Of a stretch of DNA of 32,000 nt, positions 648 to 24,743 are shown one piece after another. Source of the DNA: Geobacter metallireducens GS-15 (GTDB lineage: Bacteria > Desulfobacterota > Desulfuromonadia > Geobacterales > Geobacteraceae); the NCBI RefSeq assembly GCF_000012925.1, contig NC_007517.1:2430001-2462000 (forward strand), read 5' to 3'. The position numbers and the translations under genes were made by a program. Under the pieces are notes generated by a model. The model was given only the letters and a program-made list of their open reading frames with translations, had not been told where the DNA came from and made no database searches. The number at the start of each line of letters is the position of its first letter. Position 1 is the stretch's first letter.

Positions 648-1400
648 TCAACTAAGGCAGGAGCGTCTGAATGCAGATGGGGATATGCCAGTAATGCTCT
701 TGAACTGTCGGGTGAATTCACTCGGATCATTGAACCCGAGCTTGTAGGCAACGGTCGAGATAGTGAGATCCGCTCTCCGGAGAAGGGTTTCCGCCTTGCT
801 TATCTTTACCATATTCATGAACCGCATGGGGCTCACGCCGATATACTTTTTGAAGTTGCGGCAGAAGTGGAATTTACTGAGGTGGGCCGCGCGGGCCAGG
901 TCGTCGAGATATAAGGCGCAGTCGTAATTGCTCTTGATGTGCATGACCGCACGGCCGATCGATTCGGGAAGGTCGTCGGGAAGGTTGATGGGATCGGAAT
1001 AGTGCCGCTTGAGGGGATCTCTGCGCTCCCGCTGCATCCGGCGAAGGGCGAGTATGGTTTCAACCGCATGCTGGAGCACATGCAGATCGACCGGCTTGCG
1101 GAAATACTCCCGGGCTCCTTTTCTGAATGCCTTGAGGACGATCTCCTCGGAGCTGGAATCGGTCAGAAAGATTACCGGCAGATCGTTGCGAAGTGCTTTG
1201 ATTTCTCCAAGGAGGGTTATCCCGCCATCGGCGTCGGTGCCGCTGTCGAGGATGACGATATCCGGATCACTGGGGCCAATTGCCGTGGAAAGCCCCGCCG
1301 CGGATACGAGCCGGATGCCCGCATTGCCGACTGCCAGCAAGTCATACAGATCGGAATGGCTCGGTTCGGCAACAACAACTATGGATTGGGCCAGTGACAT
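648..1400 (-). CDS. response regulator: receiver domain plus AraC/XylS-type HTH output
   Basis: 250-aa ORF with ATG at 1400. The N-half is receiver-like (DIVILDSGTDADG, VIFLTDSS, GAREYFRKP). The C-half has the AraC signature (LDDLARAAHLSKFHFCRNFKKYIGVSPMRF ... LGFNDPSEFTRQFK). Confidence 0.85.
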   Translation of the reverse strand: MSLAQSIVVVAEPSHSDLYDLLAVGNAGIRLVSAAGLSTAIGPSDPDIVILDSGTDADGGITLLGEIKALRNDLPVIFLTDSSSEEIVLKAFRKGAREYFRKPVDLHVLQHAVETILALRRMQRERRDPLKRHYSDPINLPDDLPESIGRAVMHIKSNYDCALYLDDLARAAHLSKFHFCRNFKKYIGVSPMRFMNMVKISKAETLLRRADLTISTVAYKLGFNDPSEFTRQFKSITGISPSAFRRSCLS

Positions 1401-1424
1401 CGCCAGACCTTTCCCATGAACCCA

Positions 1425-2057
1425 TCAGATCAACTTGTTCTCGATGACGAAGCGGGTCAGTTCCGCGTTGTTTTTCATGTTCAGCTTGCGCAGGATGTGG
1501 GCCCGGTAGGTACTGACGGTCTTCACGCTCAGGGAAAGCTCGGTGGCGATCTTGCCGACCGTCTTGCCTGAGGCGATCATGCTCATCACCTGATACTCCC
1601 TGTTGGAGAGACTCTGGAGGAGATCCTGCTGGTTATGATCACTGAGACCGGATACCAGAGACTCCGCCAGGGCCGAGCTCACATATTTTTTCCCCATGGA
1701 AATCTTATGCAGGGCATCGAGCAGTTCATTGGAAGCGCTTCCCTTGTTCAGGTAGCCCGCTGCCCCCGATTTATACGCACGGAGCGCGTACTGCTCCTCG
1801 GGGTGCATGCTCATGACGAGGACCGGCAGTTTCGGTTTGATGCTTTTCATCTCCGTCAGGACATCGAGTCCGTTTCTGCCCGGCATGGTGATATCGAGGA
1901 TCACCATGTCGTAATCATTGGCCTGTATCTTGTTCAGCAACTCCTTGCCGTCGACCGCTTCGTCGACAACGCTCATGTCCACCGTGGTGCCAATAACCTG
2001 CTTGAGCCCTTCCCTGAAGATTGCGTGATCATCGGCTACAAGTATCCTGGTGCTCAT
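1425..2057 (-). CDS. NarL/LuxR-family response regulator
   Basis: MSTRILVADDHAIFREGL, DMVILDITMPGRNG, and LuxR HTH LSNREYQVMSMIASGKTVGKIATELSLSVKTVSTYRAHILRKL. ATG 2057 is preceded by AAGGAG (rc of 2064-2069). The ORF-track start at 2060 is a TTG one codon upstream. The 5' end overlaps the kinase stop (2029). Confidence 0.9.
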   Translation of the reverse strand: MSTRILVADDHAIFREGLKQVIGTTVDMSVVDEAVDGKELLNKIQANDYDMVILDITMPGRNGLDVLTEMKSIKPKLPVLVMSMHPEEQYALRAYKSGAAGYLNKGSASNELLDALHKISMGKKYVSSALAESLVSGLSDHNQQDLLQSLSNREYQVMSMIASGKTVGKIATELSLSVKTVSTYRAHILRKLNMKNNAELTRFVIENKLI

Positions 2058-3285
2058 CAACGTCTCCTTCCCTGGCTAATGGAATCCGTGCAACCACTGT
2101 GGTCCCCTGGCGCGAAGAGCCGCATATCCTCAGTCTCCCTCCAAACGCCTCCGCCCGTTCCCGCATCCCTGCAATACCGAGCGACTGCGGATTGTTCTTC
2201 TCTCTCTCAGTAATTCCCCGGCCATTGTCGCTCACCGACAGGGTCACCCTACCGACTTTTTCCACCAGGGTCACCCGGACATGGTCAGCGGTGGCGTGGC
2301 GGGCGACATTGCTCAACGCTTCCTGAACTATCCGGTAAACCGCCGTGGACACATCCCGATCCACCTTCTTCTCGGCGAGAAGGATGGTTGTCTTGCAGCG
2401 TATCCCGCTTTTCTTCTCGAATTCCTTTGCCTGCCATTCAATGGCATCGGCCAGTCCCAGGATATCGAGCATAACCGGCCGCAGTTCCGAGGAGATCCTG
2501 TTCACGGTCATGATGGACGAAGTGATCAACTGCTCCATCGCCTGTGTCCTGGCGACAAGCTTGGCGTGGTCGAGGTATTCCTTTGTCACGAGCGACACGT
2601 TCAACTGAAGGGCCGCCAGCATCTGTCCCAGTTCTTCGTGAATTTCCCGCGCGACTGCCGTTCGCTCCTCCTCCCGGGCCGACATAAGGTGAAACGAAAG
2701 CCTGCGCTGCTTTTTCAGGGAATCGACCAGCCCCTCCTCCCGTTTGCTGCGCTCAATCTCACGGGAATCCTCCCGGTCCGGAGGAGGCGGCTTTCCCGAC
2801 AATTCATACCAACGCAGCTTCCGGTGCCCCCCCGCCCCGGGTGCCCGCTCCTCCTCCGGAATGTGCCGGCCGGTAATGTCTATCATCGCGACGCGGCACT
2901 CGTCCCCGCAGGTGTCGCAAGCCCCCTCGAAACGGATCAGGGAGGGATTCCCCCCTATCGGCTGTTCAAGCTCGCAACTGGCTTTACACGCACTCATCAT
3001 GTTCCTGAGAAATTCCGCAAAGACCGGACGCGATCCCTCGGAAAGAAACTGCTCCAATGGCCGGCCAACGAGCCTGGAACGCTCCTCCCCCAGCATGTGG
3101 GCCGCAATATGGTTGACGGTGCGAATTATTCCATCCTGTCCCAGGATAACGCCGCCAACCGGCGCCTGATCGAACAGGCGATTGAATTGTTGCAGAACGT
3201 GCTCTTTCTCGGCCATGGCATCAACGAGTTTGGCGTTTTGCAGTTCCAGCACGTTCTTCTGCGCTTCAATTTCAAGCAGCAGCAT
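2029..3285 (-). CDS. cytoplasmic PAS-domain sensor histidine kinase (HisKA_3/NarX-DegS type)
   Basis: PAS-like FDQAPVGGVILGQDGIIRTVNHIAAHMLG, H-box AREIHEELGQ, and ATPase boxes EALSNVARHA, DNGRGI, GIAGMRERAEAFGG. The frame is open up to 3504 (TTG). The best start is ATG 3285, with AAGGAG (rc of 3292-3297) 6 nt upstream, giving a 418-aa protein that starts MLLLEIEAQKN. Confidence 0.85.
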   Translation of the reverse strand: MLLLEIEAQKNVLELQNAKLVDAMAEKEHVLQQFNRLFDQAPVGGVILGQDGIIRTVNHIAAHMLGEERSRLVGRPLEQFLSEGSRPVFAEFLRNMMSACKASCELEQPIGGNPSLIRFEGACDTCGDECRVAMIDITGRHIPEEERAPGAGGHRKLRWYELSGKPPPPDREDSREIERSKREEGLVDSLKKQRRLSFHLMSAREEERTAVAREIHEELGQMLAALQLNVSLVTKEYLDHAKLVARTQAMEQLITSSIMTVNRISSELRPVMLDILGLADAIEWQAKEFEKKSGIRCKTTILLAEKKVDRDVSTAVYRIVQEALSNVARHATADHVRVTLVEKVGRVTLSVSDNGRGITEREKNNPQSLGIAGMRERAEAFGGRLRICGSSRQGTTVVARIPLAREGDVDEHQDTCSR

Positions 3286-3522
3286 CTCTATCTCCTTCTC
3301 TGTCCGAGGCGAAAACGCGCTCGACGAGGGAGGGAGGGGCTCCGTCACTCTTCCCGGCTCCGATTCGGCGGATACTGGCGGCTTGTTCTTGAGATTGTCC
3401 GTTTCCAATGGCGACCTCGCATACTCGCTACACCGGCTAATAAGTATACCGGATTGAGGCCCTTTGTCTCGCAGCGGTTCGGGCCAATGGCGTCCCGACC
3501 ACAATATACTGCTGCAATTTCC

Positions 3523-4894
3523 GGCTCTTTAGCAGAATCTGTGGTGACACAGGGGTTCTGGCAAGTCGCCAAGTGTGTGATATAGCGCCACTTGCAGGCA
3601 CTTGATGGTTCGGAAACCGTACGCTTTTCTGATAGTCAGTTTTGCTTTGAGGTTCAGACCCTCTACCGCGCCGCTGGAAAGTCGGCCTTTTGCCTTGAAC
3701 CAGTTGAGAATCATCGGTTTGTGGTTGCGTAACATCCTGGCAACCTTCTTCATCGGTTCCAGGTCAGTTTGCATTGTCCTGATGACCCAGTCGTCGAGGA
3801 ACTTGCCAGCAAAGTCAGACCGCTGGTAGTCCCAGAACTGCTGAAAGTCCTCGCGCAGCAGATATGCCTTGATTGATGAGAGGTTGAGCTTGAGCAAATC
3901 TCCCAATCGTGACGTCTGCTTCTCGGACAGATTTTCCGGCCGTTTCAGCAGCAACCAACGGCCCTTTTCCAGGACGTTCTCCTGCTTGGCGGCCTTGAAC
4001 TCCTTGGCTTCGGTGCGCCGAACCTCGTCAATCGCTTCGTTAAACTTCCGCATGATGTGGAAGCGGTCGAGGATGTTCACGGCATTGGGTGCCCGCTTGG
4101 CGATAACCTTGAGATACGGTGCCCACATGTCGCTGCAGACATACTTGAGCTTGGCGCTGCGTTCTTTGCCGAATTCCCGAAAGAAGCGCAGTAGCGTTCT
4201 TATCCGACGTTGCGGACCACACCAGAGAAGACGCCTGACGCCGGCATTGAGCTGATAGACCATCGTAAGATACTGATGGCCCTTGAAGACGGCAATTTCA
4301 TCAACACCGATTTCCGTAACGCCATCAAGGTTTCTGTTTGCCAGGCCGTAATCGACAGCATACTGCACCGCCCGAAAGATGCTGTCCCAACTGGTCTTAA
4401 AGATTTCGGCAACTTCCTTCCAGGAGAGTCGCCGAGCCCACCGGGCAAGATAGACCTGGTACGAGATCGTCATTTGCTCTTTGCCATACCCCCAGGGGAG
4501 GGATTCAACCTTTACCCCATGGATTGGGCACAGAACCCGACGGGGAGCGTAGCGAAAGAAGACCTTGAACGCCCAGATCGGCACATACTCGAACAGTCGG
4601 GCCGGTTGCGTGTCGTATGTCTTGCCTCGCTTGCCACATTCCGGGCATTCGGGCTTGCTGTTGCGACGAGCCTTGATGTCAATGACCAGTGCTTCTGAGC
4701 CGCCGACTTTCGCCAGTCGGCAATCTCCGTAAATGAAGGACTTGAAACGCTCGAACTTGTTCAGTACAGTCTTGATAAGCATTGCTTCTCCCGTGTCGGA
4801 CTTGATCGTTTCTCGCAAAAACAATCTTATCCTTCACGGAGGGGCAATGCCCTTATTTTTTCAGCCAACTACCCACAGATTCTGCGGACGAGGC
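3523..4894 (-). mobile_element. ISL3-family insertion sequence, apparently intact
   Basis: The imperfect terminal inverted repeats share the 13-nt core GCAGAATCTGTGG (3532-3544, and rc of 4872-4884), with GGCTC/GCCTC ends. They are flanked by the 8-bp direct repeat CAATTTCC (3515-3522 and 4895-4902). Boundaries are +/-1 nt. The element has a single transposase ORF. Confidence 0.85.
3529..4782 (-). CDS. ISL3-family transposase
   Basis: N-terminal zinc-finger pattern CPECG...CPIHG. Central VDEIAVFKGHQYLTMVYQL and DRFHIMRKFNEAIDEVRR. C-terminal SSGAVEGLNLKAKLTIRKAYGFR, typical of ISL3 transposases. ATG 4782 follows GGGAGAAG. The track start at 4824 is a TTG. The stop lies inside the terminal repeat. 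Confidence 0.9.
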   Translation of the reverse strand: MLIKTVLNKFERFKSFIYGDCRLAKVGGSEALVIDIKARRNSKPECPECGKRGKTYDTQPARLFEYVPIWAFKVFFRYAPRRVLCPIHGVKVESLPWGYGKEQMTISYQVYLARWARRLSWKEVAEIFKTSWDSIFRAVQYAVDYGLANRNLDGVTEIGVDEIAVFKGHQYLTMVYQLNAGVRRLLWCGPQRRIRTLLRFFREFGKERSAKLKYVCSDMWAPYLKVIAKRAPNAVNILDRFHIMRKFNEAIDEVRRTEAKEFKAAKQENVLEKGRWLLLKRPENLSEKQTSRLGDLLKLNLSSIKAYLLREDFQQFWDYQRSDFAGKFLDDWVIRTMQTDLEPMKKVARMLRNHKPMILNWFKAKGRLSSGAVEGLNLKAKLTIRKAYGFRTIKCLQVALYHTLGDLPEPLCHHRFC

Positions 4895-5406
4895 CAATTT
4901 CCCCCCTCCCCCCGCTCCTCTCCCCGCCGTGGGAGAGGGTGGCCGAAGGCCGGGTGAACGGTAAGGCAGGTTTGAATCAGTGCCACGCTGAGGATTAACA
5001 AACCCAAAGAGAGAATAACAAGACGATTCTACAGACGATATGTGCAGGTGTCCGTATTTTTACTAGGACATCATACGCTGAGTTTATAGGTAATTGCGAC
5101 AGCACTATTAAGGGTTTGTCTTAGTCTTTCAGACCACACCGCATCACTTCCCTCGTACTTCAGTCATCGGAAAGTTTCTGTCTAACGATAGTACTTACTG
5201 CCGCTTATTCACACACAAATACCTATAGACCATTTCCCTGATACCTATGACAAATACAGATGTCCACCGAATAGAGCGGCCGCTGTTATTTCGTATAGTT
5301 TTATCCAAAATTGGGCCGCCGGAACAGACAGTGCGCAGCCCTGCATCAAACATCTCCCGCAAAGTTAGCCTAGGCATATTGACATATTCTAAGAGGAATT
5401 CCACCT

Positions 5407-7182
5407 ATGAGACTCGTCATCCCCTGCATCACGTCATTTCTTATTACGGCCGTTCTCACCCCCTTCGTCATCCGCATCGCGACCGCCTGCAGGTGCGTGG
5501 ATGTGCCAGGCGAGCGACGCCTGCACCGGAGGCCGACTCCCCGGTGGGGAGGGGCGGCGTTTTTCGCCGGGGTGCTCCCCTTTCTGTTTGTCGAGAGCCA
5601 TGGCGGAGCATTGGCGTCGTTCATTGCCGCGTCGTTCATTCTGGTCGGCATGGGGATGGTGGATGACCTTTCCTCCCTTGACTGGAAAATGAAATTTGCC
5701 GTCATGGCGGCCGCGGCCACAATCGTCATATTCGGCGGCAACGTCACCATCAACCACATCGGGGTCTTTGGCTCACTGGGGCGGTTGGACCTGGGGATGT
5801 TAAGCATCCCCTTCACCTACATCGGCATCATTGGCATTACCAACGCCATCAACCTCCTCGACGGCCTCGACGGCCTGGCAGGCGGCGTATCGCTTCTGGG
5901 ATTCCTGTTCATGGGGATTGCGGCCCTCCTTACGGGCAACGTACCGGTAGCGGTCATCTGCTTCGCCTATGTGGGGGCGCTGGGAGCCTTTCTCCTCTTC
6001 AACTTCCCCAACGCCAGAATCTTCATGGGGGACACGGGAAGCCTCTTTCTCGGGTTCTCTCTTGCCTTCGTGGCCGTGCTCCTCACGCAGGGCGTACAAG
6101 ACTCGGTGGACTCCATGTTCCCGGTGCTCGTGCTCCTCATCCCCATCTTCGACACGCTCCGGGTCCTGCTGGTACGACTGCTGAAAAAGAAAAACCCGTT
6201 CCGGGCAGACAACCTTCATCTCCACTACCTGATGGTGCGCAGGAATATTCCCCCGGCACACGTGACGCTCCTCTTCTGGGGGGGCACGGCCCTCTTCGGC
6301 TCCATTGCGCTGCTCCTCACAAACCGGCCATCGGTCTCGTATCTTTCCGTCGTGCTGTATGCCGCGTCATTCCTGGGCCTGACCGCCGCAAGCCTGACAC
6401 CGGGAGTGGAGGCCGGCAGGGAAGCGAAACCGGTTGAAACCAGTTCCTACAATACGGCCAGACAGCCGTACAGGCCCAAGGAAGGGACGATTACCGTCAG
6501 GCTGATGTTTGTCCTTGGCGTCGTTTTCCTGGCAACCCAGGTCTTTGCCGAGGAACCGGCCGTTCTCAAGACCCAGCGGGACAAGGTCAATTACGCCATT
6601 GGCGTCAACATGGTGAGGAACTTTACGCAGCAGTCGGTCGAAATCGACCTGGATATGCTGATGCAGGGCATGAGGGACGCCCGTTCAGGCGGCAAGCTTC
6701 TCATGACTGAGGAAGAGATCCGCAGAACCACCCTTGCCGTTCAGGAAGAGGTGCGGAAGAGACAGAAGATGGCCCCCATAATAGCGGCCAAGGAGGGGCA
6801 GGCATTCCTGGCTGAAAACAAAACGAAAGAGGGAGTGGTAACCCTGCCGAGCGGCCTCCAGTACAAGATACTGAAGGCAGGTAACGGCAGGACCCCCACG
6901 GATGTTGACCATGTTCTCTGCGACTACCGCGGGACCCTTCTGAACGGAGCTGAATTCGACCGCTCCTATCCCGGCCGTCCGGTGACGTTCAGTGTCGCCG
7001 AAGGAGGAGGAATCCCCGGCCTGAGCGAAGCTTTGAAAATGATGCCGGTGAACTCAAAGTGGCAACTTTTCATTCCCTCCCAACTGGCCTACGGAGAGCG
7101 GGGGCGGACAAGTCTCATCGGATCGCCGGTCGGGCCCAATGAGACGATCATCGTGGAGGTTGAGCTCCTCGCGATCAAGTGA
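5407..7182 (+). CDS. in-frame fusion: WecA/MraY-family polyprenyl-phosphate sugar-1-phosphate transferase (N) plus FkpA/Mip-like FKBP peptidyl-prolyl isomerase (C)
   Basis: 591-aa ORF with no internal stop. AGAGGA lies upstream of ATG 5407. The N-terminal ~330 aa is polytopic with GT4-family motifs (NAINLLDGLDGLAGG, FMGDTGSLFLGFSL). A linker follows, then the signal-peptide-like MFVLGVVFLATQVFAEE (from 6505). After that come an FKBP_N-like helix region and an FKBP_C domain (LPSGLQYKILKAGNGRTP...DYRGTLLNGAEFDRSY...LFIPSQLAYGERG). Confidence 0.8.
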   Translation: MRLVIPCITSFLITAVLTPFVIRIATACRCVDVPGERRLHRRPTPRWGGAAFFAGVLPFLFVESHGGALASFIAASFILVGMGMVDDLSSLDWKMKFAVMAAAATIVIFGGNVTINHIGVFGSLGRLDLGMLSIPFTYIGIIGITNAINLLDGLDGLAGGVSLLGFLFMGIAALLTGNVPVAVICFAYVGALGAFLLFNFPNARIFMGDTGSLFLGFSLAFVAVLLTQGVQDSVDSMFPVLVLLIPIFDTLRVLLVRLLKKKNPFRADNLHLHYLMVRRNIPPAHVTLLFWGGTALFGSIALLLTNRPSVSYLSVVLYAASFLGLTAASLTPGVEAGREAKPVETSSYNTARQPYRPKEGTITVRLMFVLGVVFLATQVFAEEPAVLKTQRDKVNYAIGVNMVRNFTQQSVEIDLDMLMQGMRDARSGGKLLMTEEEIRRTTLAVQEEVRKRQKMAPIIAAKEGQAFLAENKTKEGVVTLPSGLQYKILKAGNGRTPTDVDHVLCDYRGTLLNGAEFDRSYPGRPVTFSVAEGGGIPGLSEALKMMPVNSKWQLFIPSQLAYGERGRTSLIGSPVGPNETIIVEVELLAIK

Positions 7183-7234: not shown

Positions 7235-7471
7235 ATGAGAAAGCTGCCGGCATTAGCATCCGCGATTATCCTCTCGGGTTTGATGGCTGCATCGCTGCAC
7301 GCGGCACAGAATCCCGGTTCCGGGAATCCGCAGAAACAACAGGCACAAGTCAAGCGAAACAGTGCCCCTGCCCCGAAGAAGGCCGTTTTATCCAAACGCA
7401 ATCGGGCCAAGATCGAGGTGGAAGAGATGAAAAAGATCAAGCAGCAGTTGCAGAAGGACGGCACGAACTAA
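7235..7471 (+). CDS. small secreted basic protein (78 aa), unknown function
   Basis: GGAAAGGAGG lies upstream of ATG 7235. Signal peptide MRKLPALASAIILSGLMAASLHA|AQ. The mature part is K/Q/R-rich (KRNRAKIEVEEMKKIKQQLQK). It sits between the FKBP fusion and the oxidase with short gaps. Confidence 0.6.
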   Translation: MRKLPALASAIILSGLMAASLHAAQNPGSGNPQKQQAQVKRNSAPAPKKAVLSKRNRAKIEVEEMKKIKQQLQKDGTN

Positions 7472-7499
7472 GAACTTGAGCGATTTTGGAGGAGGACCT

Positions 7500-10400
7500 A
7501 TGAACAGGCAACAGCTTTCAATCATTATGAGCCTGGTGCTTGCACTGGCGGCACTTCCCCTGGCTGCCTACGCTGGTCCGGGGACAAGGGCGACGCCGCC
7601 GGCACCTGACTACCCTGCGTCCGCAACGCCCAGCGGAGGCACGTTCTACGCCAACAGCCCGGCAGGCCCCTGGAAATACACTAACATCATGGGCACCTAC
7701 AGTAGCGCTTCCAGCAATTCCGGAACCCCTCTCAGGAAGTTTGTCGACTCGCTGCCGGGGCTCGGGTCCGGCGCACGGCCTGCCGGTACAGCCCTGGGCG
7801 CCAACAACCTCGGGCAGTACATCCCAATCGCAGCTCCCGACACGGCCACGTACCCCGGCTCGGATTACTACCAGATCGGTCTGAAAGACTACCGGGTACA
7901 GATGCACTCGGACCTCCCCCCCACCGCGGATGCGTTGGGAACCGGCACTAAGCTGAGGGGGTATTACCAGAAAAACGGTACGGACCACTCGTCCAACTAC
8001 CTGGGACCTCTGATCATTGCCCAGAAGGACCGGCCGGTGCGCATCAAGTTCTTTAACGAACTGGGCGCTAACGGCGCGGGCGACCTCTTCATACCGGTGG
8101 ACACCACGTACATGGGTGCGGGGATGGGCCCCAACGGGATGGATAACTACACACAGAACCGGGCCGATCTTCATCTCCATGGCGGACACTCTCCGTGGAT
8201 CAGTGACGGGACCCCACACCAGTGGATCACCCCGGCCGGGGAGACGAGCACCCCCTATACCTCTGGTGCAAGTTTGAGAAACGTTCCCGACATGGATGGC
8301 GGGATCGAGCCGGCCGGCGCCTCCACCTATTTCTGGACCAACAACCAGAGCGGCAGGATGTTGTTCTACCACGACCATTCCTACGGGATAACGCGCCTCA
8401 ACGTCTATGCCGGCGAGGCGGCAGGCTACCTCATAGTCGATCCCGCGGAAGAGACCTCGCTGGCCGCCGCCGGCGTCCCCGGCACCATCCGTAATCCAGC
8501 CAATCTGGGGGATACGGCAAATAACGACCTGGCACACATTATCCCCCTGATCATCCAGGACAAGACTTTCGTTCCCCAGGACATTGCCGTTCAGGATACG
8601 AAATGGAACGATCCCAAATGGGGCAAGTACGGCGACCTGTGGTTCCCGCACGTCTACGAAACGAACCAGTGGCCCACCAACCCGGACCTGAGTGGTGCGA
8701 ACAACTTCGGCCGGTGGGACTACGGCCCCTGGTTCTGGCCGATCTTCCCCGCTGCCGTTCCGGGACTGCCCACAATGAACGTGTCCGGCGTGCCTGAAGG
8801 GTTCATGGATACGCCCGTTGTCAACGGTACGGCCTACCCGTATATGGACGTACAGCCCCAGGCCTACCGGTTGCGGATCCTGAACGCGGCCAACGACCGG
8901 ATGTTCAACCTCTCCTTCTTTACGGCCGACCCGACCCTTACCCCCTTTGACCCGGTGACCGGCCAGCCGAACCCCGGTTATCAAAAGGAAGTCAAAATGG
9001 TTCCGGCAGTTCCGCGGCCGGTCTGCAGTGCGACCGTCACCACGAACTGCACCTGCGCCGGCGCCCCCGGAACACCGGTTGGCTGTTTCCCGCCGACCTG
9101 GCCCACGGATTCGAGGGCGGGCGGCGTGCCCGACCCGGCCACAGCCGGCCCGCCAATCATCCAGATAGGTTCTGAAGGCGGCCTGCTGCCGGCGCCTACC
9201 GTGATCAATCCCCAACCGGTCAACTATGAATACAATCGCAGAAACGTGGTGGTCCTGAATGTGTCGGACAAGGCGCTCTTCCTGGGGCCGGCGGAACGGG
9301 CCGATGTGATCGTCGACTTTTCCGCCTATGCCGGCAAGACCGTCATCCTTTACAACGACGGCCCCGCGCCGGTGCCGGCGTTCGACCCGCGCAACGACTA
9401 CTACACGGGCTGCCCGGATAATACCTCGTCGGGTGGCGCACCTCCGACAATGGCCGGTTACGGTCCCAACACCCGGACCATCATGCAGTTCCGGGTAGCG
9501 GCTGCTACTCCGGTACCCTTCAATCCGGCTCCGTTAACCACGGCTCTGCCGACGATCTATGCAGCGTCGCAGCCCGCGCCGGTGATTCCGCAAACCGGCT
9601 ATCCCGGCCCCTATAAAGCAACAGCCGATACCTATTCCAGAATATCAGACAACTCCCTGACCTTTACGCCGGTCGGCGCCACCGCGCCGGTAACGATGCC
9701 CATGAAGTCGAAGGCCATTCAGGAGCTTTTCACCGCGGACTATGGCCGCATGAACGCCACTCTGGGGGTCGAACTGCCGTTTACCAACGCCCTTATCCAG
9801 ACGACGATTCCCCTGGGTTACATAGACCCGACAACCGAACAGCTCAACAACGGCCAGCCCCAGCTCTGGAAGATCACCCATAACGGCGTTGACACCCATG
9901 CCATCCATTTCCACCTGTTCGACGTGCAGATCATCAACCGGGTCGGCTGGGACGGCATGATTCGGCCACCCGACGCCAACGAGTTGGGATGGAAGGATAC
10001 GGTCAGGATGCACCCGCTGGAAGACATCGTTGTCGCCATGAGACCGACGACGCCGCCTGTGCCATTCCCTCTCCCCAACAGCGTCCGGCCGCTCGACGTG
10101 ACAATGCCTCTGGGTACCACAACGCAATTTACCGGTGTTGATCCCACTACCAATACGCCGATCACCGTTACCAACGAGTTGACAAACTTTGAGCACGAGT
10201 ACGTTTGGCACTGCCATCTCCTGGGTCATGAAGAGAATGACATGATGCGGCCAGTTGTATTCGCTACCAAGCCGCCACAGGGTGACTTCAACGGCCTCGG
10301 CAAAACCGATATCGCCGTCTGGCGCCCTGGCACCACCGGCCAATGGTGGATCAAAACGTCAACTAACACGCCCGTTGTAATAAACCAGGGAATAACCGGA

Positions 10401-11105
10401 GATAAGCTCGTTCCCGGCGACTACGATGGCGACAGAAAGACCGACGTGGCCGTATGGCGCCCCTCCGACGGCAACTGGTACATTACCAACAGTGCCAACG
10501 GGACGACCAGTACCATAGGTTACGGAACCAATGGCGACATCCCCGTCCCCGGCGACTACGATGGCATCGGCAAAACCGAGACGGCAGTGTGGCGCCCCTC
10601 CAATGGTACCTGGTATATCCCCAACAGCGCCAATGGTACGCAGAGCGTCATAACGTACGGGACGAACGGCGACATCCCCGTCGCCGGCGACTACGACGGC
10701 GACGGCAAGACTGACGTTGCCGTCTGGCGTCCATCCAATGGCAGATGGTACATCAAGAACAGCGGCTCAACCACGCAAACCGTCGTCAGCTACGGCTCGA
10801 ACGGCGATACCCCCGTTCCCGGCGATTACGACGGCGACAACAAGACCGACATGGCCGTCTGGCGCAACGGCACCTGGTACATCAAGAACAGCGCCACCAA
10901 TACCCAAACTGTCGTGAATTTCGGCACCGCCGGCGACATCCCGGTCCCCGGCGACTACGAAAACCTCGGCCGGACGGAAATAGCCGTATGGCGTCCCTCC
11001 AACGGCAACTGGTACATCATGAATCCGGTGACCCACTTGCAAACCACCGTAAACTGGGGCGCCCCGACAGACTTGCCCATCAAGGTATTCCAACCGGTGA
11101 AGTAG
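7500..11105 (+). CDS. large secreted multicopper oxidase with C-terminal FG-GAP/VCBS repeat module (possibly OmpB/OmpC-like)
   Basis: GGAGGAGG lies upstream of ATG 7500; the track start at 7476 is a TTG. Sec-type signal MNRQQLSIIMSLVLALAALPLAAYA. All four MCO copper-ligand motifs are present: HLHGGH, YHDHSYG, HAIHFH, HCHLLGHEENDMM. The last ~274 aa are six tandem DxDxDG repeats. Confidence 0.9.
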   Translation: MNRQQLSIIMSLVLALAALPLAAYAGPGTRATPPAPDYPASATPSGGTFYANSPAGPWKYTNIMGTYSSASSNSGTPLRKFVDSLPGLGSGARPAGTALGANNLGQYIPIAAPDTATYPGSDYYQIGLKDYRVQMHSDLPPTADALGTGTKLRGYYQKNGTDHSSNYLGPLIIAQKDRPVRIKFFNELGANGAGDLFIPVDTTYMGAGMGPNGMDNYTQNRADLHLHGGHSPWISDGTPHQWITPAGETSTPYTSGASLRNVPDMDGGIEPAGASTYFWTNNQSGRMLFYHDHSYGITRLNVYAGEAAGYLIVDPAEETSLAAAGVPGTIRNPANLGDTANNDLAHIIPLIIQDKTFVPQDIAVQDTKWNDPKWGKYGDLWFPHVYETNQWPTNPDLSGANNFGRWDYGPWFWPIFPAAVPGLPTMNVSGVPEGFMDTPVVNGTAYPYMDVQPQAYRLRILNAANDRMFNLSFFTADPTLTPFDPVTGQPNPGYQKEVKMVPAVPRPVCSATVTTNCTCAGAPGTPVGCFPPTWPTDSRAGGVPDPATAGPPIIQIGSEGGLLPAPTVINPQPVNYEYNRRNVVVLNVSDKALFLGPAERADVIVDFSAYAGKTVILYNDGPAPVPAFDPRNDYYTGCPDNTSSGGAPPTMAGYGPNTRTIMQFRVAAATPVPFNPAPLTTALPTIYAASQPAPVIPQTGYPGPYKATADTYSRISDNSLTFTPVGATAPVTMPMKSKAIQELFTADYGRMNATLGVELPFTNALIQTTIPLGYIDPTTEQLNNGQPQLWKITHNGVDTHAIHFHLFDVQIINRVGWDGMIRPPDANELGWKDTVRMHPLEDIVVAMRPTTPPVPFPLPNSVRPLDVTMPLGTTTQFTGVDPTTNTPITVTNELTNFEHEYVWHCHLLGHEENDMMRPVVFATKPPQGDFNGLGKTDIAVWRPGTTGQWWIKTSTNTPVVINQGITGDKLVPGDYDGDRKTDVAVWRPSDGNWYITNSANGTTSTIGYGTNGDIPVPGDYDGIGKTETAVWRPSNGTWYIPNSANGTQSVITYGTNGDIPVAGDYDGDGKTDVAVWRPSNGRWYIKNSGSTTQTVVSYGSNGDTPVPGDYDGDNKTDMAVWRNGTWYIKNSATNTQTVVNFGTAGDIPVPGDYENLGRTEIAVWRPSNGNWYIMNPVTHLQTTVNWGAPTDLPIKVFQPVK
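10281..11102 (+). repeat. six tandem ~43-46-aa FG-GAP/VCBS-type repeats (coding)
   Basis: The unit GDYDGDGKTDxAVWRPSNGxWYIxNSxxGxQxxxxYGxxGDxPVP occurs six times. Repeat 5 is the short form (WRNGTWYIKNS). Repeat 6 is the terminal variant GDYENLGRTEIAVWRPSNGNWYIM. Confidence 0.9.
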
Positions 11106-11383: not shown

Positions 11384-11698
11384 ATGAAACTAGCTGTCGT
11401 GGCCGGAATGGTGCTACTGCCGCACGTTCTGTTTGCGGATACCGACTGCCGGGTCGATGAATACCCGGATCACTACGTGGTCGTATGCACCGGAGAAGAA
11501 AAAGCAGAACCTCCGGCGCCCCGGCCGTCGACTATAGGTCAATCCGCCACAGCAGCAACGTCCGCAACGCCGATTCAAGCCGCAATCCAGGATCACTCAA
11601 CGGATAGCATCAATGGGCCCAGGCCCGGCCGCATGTCCAGGTCGCGCCTCGAGGCCGCGATCACGGCCCGTAACAGGTTTCTGCAGGAGAATGAGTGA
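11384..11698 (+). CDS. small secreted protein (104 aa), unknown function
   Basis: ATG 11384 follows GAGGGG. Signal peptide MKLAVVAGMVLLPHVLFA|DTDC. The mature part has two Cys (DTDCRVDEYPDHYVVVCTG), an A/T/P-rich linker and a basic C-terminal helix (SRSRLEAAITARNRFLQENE). Its stop lies 35 nt before the next start. Confidence 0.6.
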   Translation: MKLAVVAGMVLLPHVLFADTDCRVDEYPDHYVVVCTGEEKAEPPAPRPSTIGQSATAATSATPIQAAIQDHSTDSINGPRPGRMSRSRLEAAITARNRFLQENE

Positions 11699-11733
11699 TC
11701 CGTCATATCCAAAAATCAAGGAGGAATCAGTAC

Positions 11734-12519
11734 ATGAGCCGGTTTTCTCATCTGAAATGGGGTGATTACTCGCTGAAATCCCCCGAATCCGTACCAGCCT
11801 TTCCCTGCCTCAGGGGCAATAGCCGCGGCAGGAGATGTATCCCCATAGGAATCTGGGGCTTGATCCTGTTGTTCTGTGCGGTATCCGCCGCCCTCGGTCA
11901 GGAGATCAAGGGAGAGAATGCAAAGCTCAACTACAGCGTGGGCTACCAGGTGGGCAGTGATTTCAAGGCCCATGGCGTGGAACTGGACCCCGACGCACTG
12001 ATGCAGGGGGTACAGGATGCCGTCAAGCAGAAAGAGCCGTCTGTGTCCAAAGAAGAGATGAACAAGTCCCTGACGGGACTCAAACGGAAGATTGATGCCG
12101 CCGGGCAGACGAGCGCCCGGCAGAAAACCGCCGAGTACCGCCGCGCCAGCGAGGCATTTCTGAAGGAGAACGCCCAAAAGGAAGGGGTCAAGATCCTGCC
12201 GAGCGGCGTCCAGTACCGGGTAATCAGCGAAGGGAGCGGCAAAATGCCAACCCTCAAGGATGAGGTAAAGGTCCACTATCGCATCTCGCGGATAGACGGC
12301 AAGGAGTTGGGCAACACCTATGACGCCGGCATTCCGAGAACCGTCTCCGTGGCAAAAGCGATGCCGGCCCTCCAGGAGGTGCTGCCGCTGATGGCCGAGG
12401 GGTCCAAGTGGCAGGTCGTCATCCCCACTGGCACCGCTTCGGGAAACAAGGAACCCCTGGATGACCAGGGAGTTTTGATCTACGACCTGGAACTGGTTTC
12501 CGTTATTCCGGCTAAATAG
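11734..12519 (+). CDS. FkpA/Mip-like periplasmic FKBP-domain protein with degenerate catalytic residues
   Basis: AAGGAGGA lies upstream of ATG 11734; the track start at 11695 is a GTG. Hydrophobic anchor/signal IPIGIWGLILLFCAVSAALG. FKBP_N-like (KLNYSVGYQVGSDF...ALMQGVQDAV) and FKBP_C-like (ILPSGVQYRVISEGSGKMP...VKVHYRISRIDGKEL...WQVVIPTGTASG) regions. Confidence 0.8.
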   Translation: MSRFSHLKWGDYSLKSPESVPAFPCLRGNSRGRRCIPIGIWGLILLFCAVSAALGQEIKGENAKLNYSVGYQVGSDFKAHGVELDPDALMQGVQDAVKQKEPSVSKEEMNKSLTGLKRKIDAAGQTSARQKTAEYRRASEAFLKENAQKEGVKILPSGVQYRVISEGSGKMPTLKDEVKVHYRISRIDGKELGNTYDAGIPRTVSVAKAMPALQEVLPLMAEGSKWQVVIPTGTASGNKEPLDDQGVLIYDLELVSVIPAK

Positions 12520-12670
12520 GCGACCTTCAACGTCTCTATAAAAACCTAGGGAAAGGTGGTGATCGGAAAGACGGCAGGGATTGCTGCAGACATCGCTGAA
12601 CCATCTCCGGAGCGACACACGTCGGGATGGCACCCAAAGGGCATGAGGCCCTGAACTCGAGGAGGCAACA

Positions 12671-15600
12671 ATGAATGATCACCCACCATGGAAAACCGGA
12701 ACCAGGCTGCTCTCCGCCCTCACCTTCCTGGGCCTGAGCATCACGTCAACCGCCCACGCGGTGCCTGTACCGGGGGGGACCGTCGACCCCGCCAGCATCC
12801 CCAAGTACGTGACCCCTCTGGTCATCCCCCCGGTGATGCCCGCAAGTGTCTCGTCACCGGCCCCGGCGGCCAAATATGACATCGCTGTCCGCCAGTTCAA
12901 ACAGCAGATCCTTCCCGGCGGCATCTGGGGGAGCAGCTTCCCCAACCCGCTCGCTGCTGCGCCGGCAACGGTCGGCCCATTCCCTGCCACAACCGTGTGG
13001 AGTTACGGCCGGGCATCGGACCCGCAGCCGGATTCAACGGCGATCGTGGGGGGAGGCGTAGGGATCGCGCCGGCCACGAACTCGAGCTTCAACTATCCGG
13101 CCTTCACCGTGGAAAACACCTCGAACGTGGCTACCTCGGTGCGCTGGAGCAACGATCTGGTCGCCGATCCGGTTGCCTGCGCGGCATCTCCCAACAAGAG
13201 CGTCGCCGCGTGTAATTTCCTGCCTCACCTCTTCAGCGTGGACCAGACCATCCACTGGGCCAACCCGACCGGCACGGGCTGCGTCATGGCCATGAACCCC
13301 CTCGGGGTCGATTGCCACACGGCCAATGCAGCTCCCTACATCGGTCCGGTCCCACTGGTGACCCACGTCCACGGCGCCCATGTCATGCCCCATAGCGACG
13401 GCTATCCCGAAGCGTGGTGGCTCCCCGGCACCCCCGGCACCAAGGGGATTCCAGCCAGCTATGTGGAGCGCGGCACGAAATACGACCAGGCCAACACCGC
13501 CAACGCCATCGCCGGCACGGCCTACTTCAACTACCTCAACACCCAGCCGGCCACAACGATCTGGTATCATGACCATACCATCGGCATGACCCGGCTTAAC
13601 GTCTATGCAGGCCCGGCCGGTTTCTGGCTCATCAGGGGGGGCGTGAACGATCTGGCAGCCGGCAGCCTTCCCGGCCCGGCACCGACCGTCGGGCAAGACC
13701 CGAACCTAACCCCCGCGACCCGCAACGCCATCCGCGAGGTGCCGATTGTCATCCAGGACCGTTCGTTCGATTGGGCCGATGCCGCCGGCAACACGCTCCC
13801 CACGTCGACGGGGGCCACCCAGGCCAAGCTGTTCTACCCGTCCAGCCGCCTCTTCTTCGACGGCTTCACCGGACCGTACATCGGTGGAGTCGGCACCCCT
13901 GCCGGTCCTTCGGACATCTCCCCCATACTCAACCCCGAAGTGTTCTTCAACACCATGGTGGTCAACGGCACAACCTGGCCGAAATTCACCGTGGCGCCGA
14001 CCAAATACCGCTTCCGCTTCCTGGACGGCTGCAACTCCCGGACCCTCAACCTCTCGATGTATGTGGTAACCGCCGGCCCCGACGGCAAATGGGGCACGGC
14101 CGACGACGTGAAGACCACTACGGAAATCCCCTTCTACCAGATCGGCGGCGATCAGGGGTTCCTTCCCAAGGTCGTCAAGATCACCAAGGGCTTCGCTACC
14201 GCCCTTCCCGGGAACGGGACCATCCCGGCAGCCGTGGCCGCTCCCTCCACCGAACAGGGTTTGTTGATGGGTCCGGCTGAACGTGCCGACGTGATCATCG
14301 ACTTCACCGGTCTGGCCAACGGTACCCATGTCCGGATTTTCAACACGGGTCCCGACGCCCCCTTCCAGGGGTTCCCGGCCAACCTGGCACTCTATGCGCC
14401 GGCCGATCCGCTCACCTCCGGACAGGTGATGGATTTCATCGTCGACTCCGTTGCCGTTCCCGTGCTCCCGAGCGACGCAACCACAACGACGGTGCAGAAC
14501 CTCGTCCTCCCCAGCGAGGCACCCCTCGGCGCACCGGTGCCCACTCCCCGCAAGGTTTCCCTGAACGAGCTGGACTCCGCCCAGGTCTGCGTCGAAGTCA
14601 ATCCGGTCACCGCGGCAATCGTCCGGACGATTTTCAGCACCTTCGCCGGGGATCCGAACTTTGCGGCCAACTGCGCGAAGGCGGCGGTCCTCACACCGGG
14701 TGATGTGCCGTTGCCGGCAGGCCCCCGCATAACGCTCCTCGGCACGCTGTCCGCCGACGGGCTTACGGCGGTCCCGTTGAACTGGAATGATCCGCTCACC
14801 GAACTGCCGCTTCTCAGCAGCACCGAAACCTGGGAAATCTACAACACCACCATGGATGGACATCCTGTCCACGTACACCTGGTGCGGTTCGAGCTGGTCA
14901 ACCGGCAAAAACTCCTCGCCGCCACCCTGACGCCGGACCCCGCGGCCGGCAGCACGACTCTCCCGCAACCCAACGAACAGGGCTTTAAAGACACCATCAT
15001 CGCGCTGCCCGGACAGGTTACCCGGATAAAGGCAAAGTTCGACATCGAGGGGCTCTATGTATGGCACTGCCATATCGTCGAGCATGAAGACAACGAGATG
15101 ATGCGCCCCTATGTGGTGCACAAGGCGCGGCTCAACGCCGATTTCGACGGCGACGGCAAGACCGACCTGGTGGTCTGGCGCCCCAACACGGGTGACTGGC
15201 TGCACATGCCATCATTCACCAACATGACCCGCACGGTCAACTTCGGCACCACCGGCGATAAGCTGGTCCCCGGCGATTACGACGGCGACGGCAGGGTCGA
15301 CATGGCTGTCTGGCGCCCCTCCAACGGCCACTGGTACTTCATGAACAGCATCACCGGCGCCCAGAGCACCGTCAGCTACGGGACCATGGGCGATACCCCC
15401 GTCCCCGGCGACTATGACGGCGACGGCAAGACCGACATGGCCGTCTGGCGCGGCGGCAGCTGGTTCATCAAGAATAGCGCCACCGGCACCCAGAGCACCC
15501 CCAGCTACGGGACCACCGGCGACATCCCCGTTCCCGGCGACTACGACGGCGACGGCAAGACCGACCTGGCTGTCTGGCGCCCCACCAACGGGACCTGGTA

Positions 15601-15955
15601 CATCACGAACAGCGCCACCGGCACGCAAACCACCGCGGCTTACGGGACCACCGGCGACGTTGTCGTCCCCGGCGACTATGACGGCGACGGCAAGACCGAC
15701 ATCGCCGTCTGGCGCAACGGCACCTGGTTCATCAAGAACAGCGGCAACGGCACCCAGAGCGTCATCAGTTACGGGACCGCCGGCGATATCCCCGTACCGG
15801 GCGACTACGACAGCATCGGCAGGACCAGCATCGCTGTCTGGCGTCCTTCCAACGGAACCTGGTATATCATGGACACCGTCACCGGCAAGCAACGGACGGT
15901 GAGTTGGGGCCTGTCCACCGATCAGCCCGTCCAGGCAAACCAGCCAGTGAAGTAA
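12671..15955 (+). CDS. large secreted multicopper oxidase with C-terminal FG-GAP/VCBS repeat module
   Basis: GAGGAGG lies upstream of ATG 12671. Sec-type signal ...LLSALTFLGLSITSTAHA|VP. Copper motifs HVHGAH, YHDHTIG, HPVHVH, HCHIVEHEDNEMM. The last ~272 aa are six tandem DxDxDG repeats. Confidence 0.9.
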   Translation: MNDHPPWKTGTRLLSALTFLGLSITSTAHAVPVPGGTVDPASIPKYVTPLVIPPVMPASVSSPAPAAKYDIAVRQFKQQILPGGIWGSSFPNPLAAAPATVGPFPATTVWSYGRASDPQPDSTAIVGGGVGIAPATNSSFNYPAFTVENTSNVATSVRWSNDLVADPVACAASPNKSVAACNFLPHLFSVDQTIHWANPTGTGCVMAMNPLGVDCHTANAAPYIGPVPLVTHVHGAHVMPHSDGYPEAWWLPGTPGTKGIPASYVERGTKYDQANTANAIAGTAYFNYLNTQPATTIWYHDHTIGMTRLNVYAGPAGFWLIRGGVNDLAAGSLPGPAPTVGQDPNLTPATRNAIREVPIVIQDRSFDWADAAGNTLPTSTGATQAKLFYPSSRLFFDGFTGPYIGGVGTPAGPSDISPILNPEVFFNTMVVNGTTWPKFTVAPTKYRFRFLDGCNSRTLNLSMYVVTAGPDGKWGTADDVKTTTEIPFYQIGGDQGFLPKVVKITKGFATALPGNGTIPAAVAAPSTEQGLLMGPAERADVIIDFTGLANGTHVRIFNTGPDAPFQGFPANLALYAPADPLTSGQVMDFIVDSVAVPVLPSDATTTTVQNLVLPSEAPLGAPVPTPRKVSLNELDSAQVCVEVNPVTAAIVRTIFSTFAGDPNFAANCAKAAVLTPGDVPLPAGPRITLLGTLSADGLTAVPLNWNDPLTELPLLSSTETWEIYNTTMDGHPVHVHLVRFELVNRQKLLAATLTPDPAAGSTTLPQPNEQGFKDTIIALPGQVTRIKAKFDIEGLYVWHCHIVEHEDNEMMRPYVVHKARLNADFDGDGKTDLVVWRPNTGDWLHMPSFTNMTRTVNFGTTGDKLVPGDYDGDGRVDMAVWRPSNGHWYFMNSITGAQSTVSYGTMGDTPVPGDYDGDGKTDMAVWRGGSWFIKNSATGTQSTPSYGTTGDIPVPGDYDGDGKTDLAVWRPTNGTWYITNSATGTQTTAAYGTTGDVVVPGDYDGDGKTDIAVWRNGTWFIKNSGNGTQSVISYGTAGDIPVPGDYDSIGRTSIAVWRPSNGTWYIMDTVTGKQRTVSWGLSTDQPVQANQPVK
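15137..15952 (+). repeat. six tandem FG-GAP/VCBS-type repeats (coding)
   Basis: Same unit as 10281-11102. Repeats 3 and 5 are the short form (WRGGSWFIKNS, WRNGTWFIKNS). Repeat 6 is the terminal variant GDYDSIGRTSIAVWRPSNGTWYIM. Confidence 0.9.
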
Positions 15956-15982
15956 ACGAGAAGTTCCAGCAGCAGCACAACG

Positions 15983-16014
15983 GAAAGGCCGGCAGAAGTG
16001 CCGGCCTTTCTTTT
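15983..16014 (+). terminator. rho-independent terminator of oxidase operon 2, U-tract interrupted by an IS
   Basis: GAAAGGCCGGCA-GAAG-TGCCGGCCTTTC then TTTT. The IS left end starts at 16015. Confidence 0.8.
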
Positions 16015-17340: not shown

Positions 17341-17377
17341 TTTCTTTTTGCCCCATCTTCCACCGCCGGTTCCCGGG

Positions 17378-17521
17378 AGGGGCGGAGCTCTTGCGGAGAA
17401 GCGATCCCCGCAAAAAACCACCTTCGGTATTGGCGGAGGGAAAGCCTCGGAAACAGCTGTTCACGTGCCACGAAGACCGGCTGGTGACGCTGGATCGCTT
17501 CGGAGCAAGAGCTCCGCCCCT
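17378..17521. repeat. long imperfect inverted repeat (30-nt arms, 84-nt spacer); function unknown
   Basis: Left arm AGGGGCGGAGCTCTTGCGGAGAAGCGATCC (17378-17407) pairs with right arm GGATCGCTTCGGAGCAAGAGCTCCGCCCCT (17492-17521). That is 17 bp, a 3x3 internal mismatch (GGA/GGA), then 10 bp. Confidence 0.8.
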
Positions 17522-17619
17522 GCCCGCCACAATGTGAAATCAGTATTAAAAATATTTTTTTTGACTTTATTCCCCCCACTAAGGCACAAATAGATAACAA
17601 ATTCACAACAGACTCGATA

Positions 17620-20637: not shown

Positions 20638-20642
20638 GGCTG

Positions 20643-24713: not shown

Positions 24714-24743
24714 TGGTTCAATGCCCTCTGCCGCCGCGCTCCC

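Follow-up and report, generated by a model that had tools for sequence, protein, structure and literature searches.

An in-frame fusion of a WecA-like transferase to an FkpA/Mip-like module heads a multicopper oxidase operon in Geobacterales

A single gene of Geobacter metallireducens GS-15 encodes two modules, each of a well-known kind. The gene lies at positions 5407-7182 of a 32,000-nucleotide stretch of contig NC_007517.1 (positions 2,430,001 to 2,462,000; the whole stretch is called the window here). The first part of its product is a membrane enzyme of the WecA/MraY superfamily of polyprenyl-phosphate N-acetylhexosamine-1-phosphate (HexNAc-1-P) transferases (PNPTs); the last part is an FKBP module of the FkpA/Mip type. 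We report that this fusion is a genuine and conserved in-frame gene, not an artefact, and that it heads a conserved operon of secreted multicopper oxidases (MCOs) whose gene order recurs in every fused locus examined. A first-pass annotation of the window had offered two explanations for the long frame: a true fusion, or two genes that lost the stop codon between them. The second does not stand as a rival to fusion, but it does describe how the fusion came about, in that the open reading frames (ORFs) of relatives still embed the old ribosome-binding site (RBS) and start codon of fkpA.

How might such a protein work? We propose, as a probable though far from certain reading, a fusion of the Geobacterales in which the 12th membrane span derives from the signal peptide of FkpA, the FKBP module acts as a periplasmic foldase of the oxidases, and the product is probably a polyprotein. 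This proposal starts from the ORF, its domains, their conservation, the synteny, the homology of the 12th span and the internal RBS, and extends by prediction to the topology, the cleavage and the relation to the client.

The open frame starts with ATG and continues for 591 codons without a break, as the first-pass annotation had described it; both the ORF listing and the raw sequence agree. The simplest objection is that the frame results from a sequencing or assembly error, or belongs to a pseudogene, the true stop or frameshift lying between the halves. Nothing was found in favour of this objection, although FKBP_N is truncated in a few relatives (P0021 and P0024), which may reflect errors or decay. 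Against it, an identical 591-amino-acid (aa) product is encoded on 21 contigs, the longest of 3,997,420 bp, the fused frame is found in independent genomes of at least six species and in many metagenomes, and catalytic motifs are conserved in both halves. We find an error or a pseudogene scarcely credible, and a missed stop codon is ruled out by the 21 identical contigs together with the fused orthologues in many independent genomes.

These orthologues are 94% identical to the window protein in G. hydrogenophilus, 72-75% in Geobacter metagenome-assembled genomes (MAGs) and Geobacter sp. AOG1, 63% in Geotalea uraniireducens Rf4 and 60% in Oryzomonas sagensis. Metagenomic proteins extend the range down to 44%, and Geomobilimonas luticola has a fused gene as well. 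The expectation, raised as a possible refutation, that orthologues would always be split into two genes is not borne out: the fused frame recurs across Geobacter, Geotalea, Geomobilimonas, Oryzomonas and MAGs. The three-domain architecture forms about 20 clusters at 90% identity. In an exhaustive search of 1.84 billion representatives of 50%-identity clusters, only two (P0006 and P0022) spanned both halves. The architecture is therefore confined to a clade of the Geobacterales, and a widespread or repeatedly arisen PNPT-FKBP fusion is ruled out.

No description of a PNPT-FKBP fusion was found in the literature searched. The parts are all known, namely PNPTs, FkpA/Mip proteins, operons that pair a peptidyl-prolyl isomerase (PPIase) with an oxidase, and internal signal peptides; the combination is undescribed in that literature and extremely rare. 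Public annotation names the fusion by one half only, as 'FKBP-type isomerase' or as 'glycosyl transferase family 4', and each name conceals the other half. The supplement of a G. metallireducens transcriptome study lists Gmet_2161, Gmet_2162 and Gmet_2163 as a glycosyltransferase of family 4 with 12 transmembrane helices, a secreted protein and the integrin-alpha/multicopper oxidase ompB (PMC10989804 supplement). From the identical gene order we infer that these are the fused gene and its two downstream neighbours in the window.

Sequence and predicted fold both place the N-terminal half in the PNPT superfamily. Pfam places Glycos_transf_4 (PF00953) at residues 70-226 (E 2.9e-41; 141.5 bits against a cutoff of 27). 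The catalytic motifs are DD at 86-87, NAINLLDGLDGL at 146-157, IFMGD at 205-209 and HLH at 271-273, and in two alignments (A1 and A2) their columns are invariant or at least 90% conserved. An AlphaFold2 (AF2) model built on a 73-sequence alignment has a mean pLDDT of 84, with values above 85 over most of the PNPT region. Foldseek matches this N-terminal part to MraY (8cxr and 6oyz; target-normalised TM-score 0.74-0.77, E ~1e-10) and also to human GPT. With the WecA equivalog model TIGR02380, however, whose cutoff is 326.05 bits, the protein reaches only 149.7, so it is a WecA-like member of the superfamily and not a WecA orthologue. The earlier label 'WecA-type' thus holds at the level of the superfamily (PF00953, motifs and fold) and fails for WecA proper. 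Among NCBIfam models, WecA ranks first for the 591-aa protein, followed by FkpA-type models and then by MraY, all below their equivalog cutoffs; these cutoffs rule out a true WecA or MraY orthologue. We predict a HexNAc-1-P transferase whose sugar specificity is not fixed by the WecA and MraY models.

Unfused relatives of this enzyme occur in more than one setting. L084, a classical Wza/Wzz polysaccharide cluster, contains one of them. In Geomonas (L087) the same oxidase operon contains a PNPT gene with its own stop codon and has no fkpA. At a third locus (L088) the two genes are separate, fkpA lying further downstream.

The C-terminal half contains FKBP_N at residues 392-488 (E 3.2e-26, 92.4 bits) and FKBP_C at 495-588 (E 4.3e-18, 65.9 bits), both above the Pfam gathering scores. 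Legionella Mip (1fd9) is matched by phmmer with an E-value of 7e-48. Foldseek finds full-length Mip and Pseudomonas aeruginosa FkbA (8r39, 8bjc and 1fd9; E ~1e-15 over ~208 columns) and matches E. coli FkpA (1q6u) as well. The scores remain below the FkpA equivalog cutoffs (107.8 against 215 bits for NF008150; 127.2 against 198 for NF008602), which makes the module an FkpA/Mip-like FKBP rather than an FkpA orthologue. Its pocket differs from that of Mip. FD and the Tyr of AYG are kept, but across 6889-7170 VIPGW is replaced by GGGIPGL (Trp to Leu, with two additional residues), IFKIHL by IVEVEL (Phe to Val), and four residues are inserted after AYGERG. The clade of G. metallireducens, G. hydrogenophilus, AOG1 and MAG H2geo shares this altered pocket, whereas fused orthologues at a greater distance have both the Trp and the Phe.

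Some fused variants are longer, at ~670 aa (P0016-P0019, P0022 and P0115; they include Oryzomonas, L082 8001-10019, and metagenomes such as L085 6001-8034). They carry an insertion of ~75 residues within FKBP_N (...TIYAIGLVLS...ELVKQGL...) that looks like a second copy of an N-domain motif. The oxidases downstream of these variants are larger too (1597-1768+ aa) and have Big_7 domains in place of FG-GAP repeats.

What joins the two halves? The first-pass annotation had noted a hydrophilic linker (331-365) followed by a hydrophobic segment, LMFVLGVVFLATQVFA/EEP (366-381/382, the slash marking the presumed cut), and both are present in the sequence. Orthologues differ in how long the linker is and in its residues, yet it is always in frame; even G. 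hydrogenophilus, the closest relative, differs by a one-codon insertion or deletion. In the AF2 model, 11 membrane helices extend to residue 330, residues 331-359 are unstructured (pLDDT < 60), and a helix at 360-381 is followed by three more helices and by a domain rich in beta structure.

E. coli WecA has 11 transmembrane (TM) segments, with its N-terminus on the periplasmic side and its C-terminus in the cytoplasm (PMC7439462). The same topology is predicted for the PNPT of the fusion: Lys and Arg number 5, 7 and 5 in the predicted cytoplasmic loops, which are the loops with the catalytic motifs and the linker, and 0-1 in the periplasmic loops. Because the PNPT would end in the cytoplasm, a 12th span would place the FKBP module in the periplasm. 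The suggestion that a former signal peptide serves as this extra TM helix is thus supported by the topology of WecA, the AF2 model, the charge pattern and the annotation of Gmet_2161 with 12 TM helices (PMC10989804 supplement).

The 12th helix is related to the signal peptides of stand-alone proteins. By rule and by homology it has the parts of a signal peptide: R365 in the n-region, the h-region LMFVLGVVFLAT and the site V-F-A/E. The signal peptides of stand-alone FkpA homologues (L009, L012, L024, L041 and L088) align with residues 362-381 of the fusion residue for residue and have A-x-A at the same place (Table 1). Most of these stand-alone homologues adjoin MCO genes.

What follows the PNPT is not the same in all relatives. 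In P0021 the unit of PNPT, linker and 12th helix is in frame and the FKBP cargo is truncated. P0041 and P0030 keep a signal peptide of the FkpA type and continue with a tail rich in Lys, Arg and Asn that resembles the 78-aa secreted protein of the window. P0031 and P0044 are PNPTs with short unrelated tails; L088 6001-7329 also belongs with these relatives. In P0032, which comes from a single metagenome contig, a different internal signal peptide joins the PNPT to a homologue of the window ORF at 11384-11697. Comparison of these proteins suggests that secreted proteins have repeatedly been captured or swapped behind the PNPT.

The junction also preserves the old start of fkpA. In eight fused loci AAAGGAG, AAGGGAGG or AAGGAAGG stands 2-8 nt before the Met codon of the junction; these are Geobacter sp. 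AOG1, MAG H2geo, Geomobilimonas, Geotalea, Oryzomonas and three metagenomic loci, P0022, the most divergent fused orthologue, being outside the comparison. The ancestral start is kept as a strong Shine-Dalgarno (SD) sequence with ATG in 8 of the 10 fused loci. When all ATGs of an ORF in any frame are ranked by anti-SD pairing, that of the junction is the strongest in five of the eight ORFs, second in two and fourth in one. AAA-GGA-G is exact in six loci, although its third codon encodes Val, Gly or Glu, and GGA accounts for only 22% of the Gly codons in the fused genes. What is conserved here is the nucleotide sequence, whereas the amino acids that it encodes change. Most species therefore probably make FkpA in two ways, as the tail of the PNPT and from the internal start.

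The window is different. Codon 362 is ATG in L002-L006, L081, L082, L085 and L086; the window and G. hydrogenophilus alone have ATT there, and these two carry GAA in the SD sequence where the others have GGA. The spacing of the remaining relic (-8.1 kcal/mol) suits codon 362 (ATT 6490) and not the in-frame ATG at 6505. The statement in the first-pass annotation that the latter has no convincing SD sequence is correct: it pairs with -1.9 kcal/mol, ranks 17th of 26 ATGs, and AAGGAAGGGA ends 17 nt upstream of it. Initiation there would yield a signal peptide lacking a charged n-region and is unlikely given the missing SD sequence. With ATT at 6490, a weakened SD sequence before it and none at 6505, the FKBP of this genome probably depends mainly on translation of the fusion. 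An evolutionary series is visible in these comparisons, apparently leading from separate genes to a fusion with a live internal RBS and on to a fusion whose internal start has decayed.

Could the locus nevertheless function as two genes? The FKBP would then be initiated mostly internally, at ATT 6490 or ATG 6505 here and at the SD sequence and ATG in relatives, and secreted as pre-FkpA, with read-through as a neutral by-product. The conserved internal start in most fused loci, the relic still properly spaced before ATT 6490 and the unfused arrangements at L087 and L088 are what this explanation leads one to expect. In the lineage of the window, however, the start is ATT, the SD sequence is degraded, and the next ATG has neither an SD sequence nor a charged n-region to offer. 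Moreover, ribosomes translating the PNPT meet no stop codon and hence must make the fusion. The linker is telling in this respect: its +1 and +2 frames reach stops after 35 and 12 codons, so that a frameshift could easily undo the fused state, yet the variable linkers never break frame in the sampled loci. We consider it improbable that the locus is functionally two genes.

The reading that we prefer, a fusion that yields a periplasmic foldase, would run as follows. A PNPT with 11 TM segments and a cytoplasmic C-terminus lost its stop codon and came to read through a disordered linker into the mofB-like fkpA downstream. The old FkpA signal peptide would insert as a 12th span, N-terminus in and C-terminus out, and the FkpA/Mip module would end up in the periplasm. 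Its most likely role there would be that of a foldase or chaperone dedicated to the OmpB/MofA-like MCOs encoded just downstream, which are proline-rich and exported by Sec, while the PNPT half would start an undecaprenyl-linked glycan, probably the product of the glycosyltransferase cluster at 19.4-31.1 kb. The internal SD sequence and ATG would still permit a separate pre-FkpA in most relatives; in this genome the FKBP would be made mainly as the fusion. Signal peptidase I would cut after VFA381, releasing soluble FkpA from a 12-TM PNPT, and the fusion would be a polyprotein. If so, the locus is a clean natural case of a membrane protein with a cytoplasmic end that captures a downstream secreted protein by means of its signal peptide.

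Is the 12th span cut, or does it hold the FKBP in place? In the second case residues 362-381 would be a stable, uncleaved TM helix, the FKBP would stay attached, and glycan initiation or flipping and oxidase folding would be coupled at one site in the membrane. Such a permanent tether fits the maintenance of the in-frame fusion across 44-94% identity and the decay of the internal start in this lineage without loss of the FKBP. It also fits the unit of PNPT, linker and 12th helix, which stays in frame despite change or loss of the cargo (P0031, P0041 and P0044), the apparently independent fusion in P0032, the ORF with a sub-threshold match to Wzy_C (a family of ligases and O-oligosaccharyltransferases) in the adjacent glycan cluster, and the PMT-family glycosyltransferase upstream in Oryzomonas. 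On the other hand, the hydrophobic core has only ~12-16 residues and ends in a canonical A-x-A exactly where stand-alone homologues are cut. FkpA/Mip proteins work as soluble or separately anchored dimers, evidence for glycosylated oxidases is nil, and Geomonas, whose PNPT is unfused, has this operon without any FkpA. We regard a permanent tether as possible but rather unlikely.

The short hydrophobic core, the V-F-A/E-E sequence at the processing position of the homologues and the retention of this site despite the decayed start together favour cleavage. The conserved A-x-A suggests that the PNPT and the FKBP may come apart once the protein has been inserted. Judging from these features of the sequence, a cut by signal peptidase I behind Ala381 seems to us the likelier fate of the protein.

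Several points weigh against the reading that we prefer. Cleavage, topology and PPIase activity are predictions, and the MCOs are presumed to be clients of the FKBP on grounds of synteny only. A-x-A could just as well be conserved because relatives use the same signal peptide in the product that starts internally, and ATT can still initiate at a low level. The pocket substitutions and the two loop insertions mean that the module may be a chaperone only, or may have reduced PPIase activity or a changed specificity. Finally, the PNPT and its 12th helix persist in relatives without the FKBP cargo (P0031, P0021 and P0041), a hint that the helix may have an uncleaved role within the PNPT itself.

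Table 1. Features of the fused gene, its junction and its surroundings in the window, with related signal peptides; a slash marks the predicted cut
Feature	Positions	Strand	Basis or remark
Complete fused ORF, 591 aa, probably Gmet_2161	5407-7182	+	ORF listing, Pfam; gene order and annotation agree with PMC10989804 supplement; tag mapping inferred
PNPT module (WecA/MraY superfamily), residues 1-330, 11 TM helices	5407-6396	+	Pfam, PDB matches to MraY/GPT, AF2
Cytoplasmic linker, residues 331-361 (31 aa), disordered	6397-6489	+	AF2 pLDDT < 60, alignment
Linker peptide EAKPVETSSYNTAR	in the linker	+	Sequence
Embedded SD relic AAGGAAGGGA (AAAGGAG in most orthologues)	6478-6487	+	Anti-SD pairing, -8.1 kcal/mol
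ATT, Ile362, at position of ancestral fkpA ATG	6490-6492	+	Orthologue comparison
Former signal peptide, predicted 12th TM helix, ITVRLMFVLGVVFLATQVFA, residues 362-381	6490-6549	+	Homology to stand-alone FkpA signal peptides; AF2 helix 360-381
In-frame ATG, Met367, no usable SD	6505-6507	+	Anti-SD pairing, -1.9 kcal/mol, rank 17 of 26 ATGs
Predicted signal peptidase I site VFA/EE	between 6549 and 6550	+	A-x-A conserved
FkpA/Mip-type module, residues 382-591 (FKBP_N dimerisation helices 392-488, FKBP_C 495-588)	6550-7179	+	Pfam, Mip 1fd9, Foldseek
Consensus of fusions, former signal peptide: MTLKWMVVLGVVLLAAQVxA/GE			
Stand-alone FkpA signal peptide, L009: MARKLTLKWIPVLGVLLMTAPVNA/AD			
Stand-alone FkpA signal peptide, L024: MKLNLTLKWLVFLVVGLLVAQASA/DQ			
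Stand-alone FkpA signal peptide, L012: MKLTRTWIMALGLTLLAVQVSA/QE			
Histidine kinase (PAS, HisKA_3) with LuxR-type and AraC-type response regulators, divergent	648-3504	-	
Small secreted protein, 78 aa ('Gmet_2162 secreted protein')	7235-7471	+	Downstream of fusion in L001-L003 too
Multicopper oxidase 1, OmpB-like, C-terminal FG-GAP repeats ('Gmet_2163 ompB')	7476-11105	+	Pfam Cu-oxidase_2/3, FG-GAP; synteny in all fused loci
Small secreted protein	11384-11697	+	
Second, stand-alone FkpA paralogue, 34-37% identical to the fused one, long n-region before signal peptide	11734-12519	+	
Multicopper oxidase 2, FG-GAP repeats	12671-15955	+	
FG-GAP protein	17688-19457	+	
Glycan-synthesis cluster: GT1/DUF1972, methyltransferases, GT1, AsnB, beta-helix protein, GT2s	19450-31118	-	

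The surroundings of the fused gene are listed in Table 1. The secreted oxidases that the first-pass annotation had noted next to the fusion are FG-GAP multicopper oxidases according to Pfam. The fusion, the small secreted protein and an MCO are syntenic in L001-L005, L081, L082, L085 and L086, and the 11-kb operon is collinear with the G. hydrogenophilus locus. The stretch 11384-15955 (+) is a second module of like composition, with a small secreted protein, a stand-alone FkpA and an FG-GAP multicopper oxidase. Geobacter sp. AOG1 and MAG H2geo encode one more FkpA, their third, between the oxidase genes (L002 14851-15498, L003 14736-15491). Outside the clade, FkpA adjoins a related MCO at L007, L009, L024, L041 and L050. 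Neither NCBIfam nor Pfam gave a family name to the two small secreted proteins of the window.

Upstream, the histidine kinase and two regulators are conserved in nearly all fused loci (L001-L004, L082, L085 and L086) and are likely to regulate the fusion operon. Gmet_2161 and Gmet_2162 were up 4.3- and 6.0-fold in one comparison of the G. metallireducens transcriptome, and ompB (Gmet_2163) responds to partners in direct interspecies electron transfer (DIET) in the same study (PMC10989804 supplement).

Two ISL3-family elements, at 3472-4922 and 15956-17544, flank the oxidase operon; their transposase genes are at 3529-4824 (-) and 16114-17337 (+). The collinear locus of G. hydrogenophilus has neither element. 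The first separates the divergently oriented histidine kinase gene from the region upstream of the fusion and may affect regulation. A composite transposon around the operon is ruled out, since the two elements share no nucleotide similarity.

The glycan-synthesis cluster on the other side of the operon contains a 402-aa ORF at 27859-29070 (-) with a sub-threshold match to Wzy_C (25.4 bits against 31.7). It overlaps the 5' end of a GT2 ORF (26949-28130), and its start coordinates are provisional. The Wzy_C family spans O-antigen polymerases, ligases and protein O-oligosaccharyltransferases of the PglL type. In Oryzomonas sagensis an 836-aa glycosyltransferase of the PMT/ArnT family (PMT_2, PMT and PMT_4TMC) is encoded upstream of the regulators of the fused gene (L082 1-1039, -). 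Enzymes of this family use polyprenyl-phosphate sugars in the periplasm, sometimes for protein glycosylation. In another relative (P0134) the PNPT is fused to a DUF1972/GT1 glycosyltransferase of the same family as the window gene at 19450-20784 (-), the first of the glycan cluster. This fusion links the PNPT to the neighbouring cluster and is a Rosetta-stone hint that it primes the glycan which the cluster makes. In Geotalea Rf4 (L081) the same DUF1972 GT1 gene and a methyltransferase gene lie downstream of the oxidase.

The first-pass annotation had hinted that glycosylation or export might be coupled to folding. That coupling is speculation: the data show an association of PNPT, FkpA and multicopper oxidases at the level of the operon, not coupling. 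In its most ambitious form, the PNPT and the FKBP would make up one coupled maturation station. A lipid-linked glycan made by the GT1, GT2 and methyltransferase cluster would be transferred by the Wzy_C/PglL-like enzyme at 27859-29070 and attached to, or used to anchor, a Sec-exported oxidase while the tethered FKBP holds that oxidase unfolded. If true, it would amount to a bacterial counterpart of systems in which translocation, glycosylation and folding are coupled, but we think it quite unlikely.

The findings matter in a plainer sense as well. In many Geobacterales the oxidase operons stably include an enzyme that initiates a glycan together with an FkpA/MofB-like foldase, and in one sub-clade the two have become a single gene. 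The locus offers testable candidates for a role in the folding, and possibly the glycosylation or anchoring, of the oxidases.

How does the fusion compare with known systems? With E. coli WecA, MraY, TagO and GPT it shares Glycos_transf_4, the motifs DD, NxxNxxDGxDGL, (V/I)FMGD and HxH, and the MraY/GPT fold; a linker at the C-terminus, followed by a 12th helix and a predicted periplasmic FKBP, is not known from any characterised PNPT. With FkpA and Mip it has in common the three-helix FKBP_N dimerisation module, the long connecting helix, FKBP_C and a homologous A-x-A signal peptide, and its FKBP is 38-40% identical to Mip over the full length. The signal peptide of the fusion, however, is internal, following 361 residues of membrane enzyme, whereas that of FkpA and Mip is N-terminal.

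A precedent for the predicted polyprotein may be FbcH, the cytochrome b-c1 polyprotein of Bradyrhizobium japonicum, which is reportedly cut in two at a signal-peptidase site. FbcH has the same arrangement that we predict here: a polytopic part, then an in-frame internal signal peptide, then a periplasmic protein. The proteins involved are different, cleavage has reportedly been demonstrated in FbcH and is predicted here, and the relatives of the present fusion keep an internal RBS.

The 'YES' complex of MraY, SlyD and protein E (PDB 8g01) is another case in which an enzyme of the PNPT superfamily is associated with a PPIase of the FKBP type. But SlyD is cytoplasmic, its association is non-covalent, and it is recruited by a phage lysis protein; the complex has no evolutionary or mechanistic relation to the periplasmic FkpA fusion.

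The closest parallel in gene context is the mofA-mofB-mofC operon of Leptothrix discophora, in which MofB, a PPIase, is the proposed folding helper of MofA, and MofA is a multicopper oxidase homologous to OmpB of Geobacter (PMC5566968). The ompB cluster of G. sulfurreducens was reported to have no mofB homologue (PMC5566968). Because the fusion heads an operon with an OmpB/MofA-like oxidase, its FKBP half resembles MofB: in both cases the gene of an FKBP-type PPIase shares an operon with a secreted multicopper oxidase of this kind. The difference lies in the arrangement, for MofB is encoded by a separate gene, whereas here the PPIase is fused to the PNPT and precedes the oxidase.

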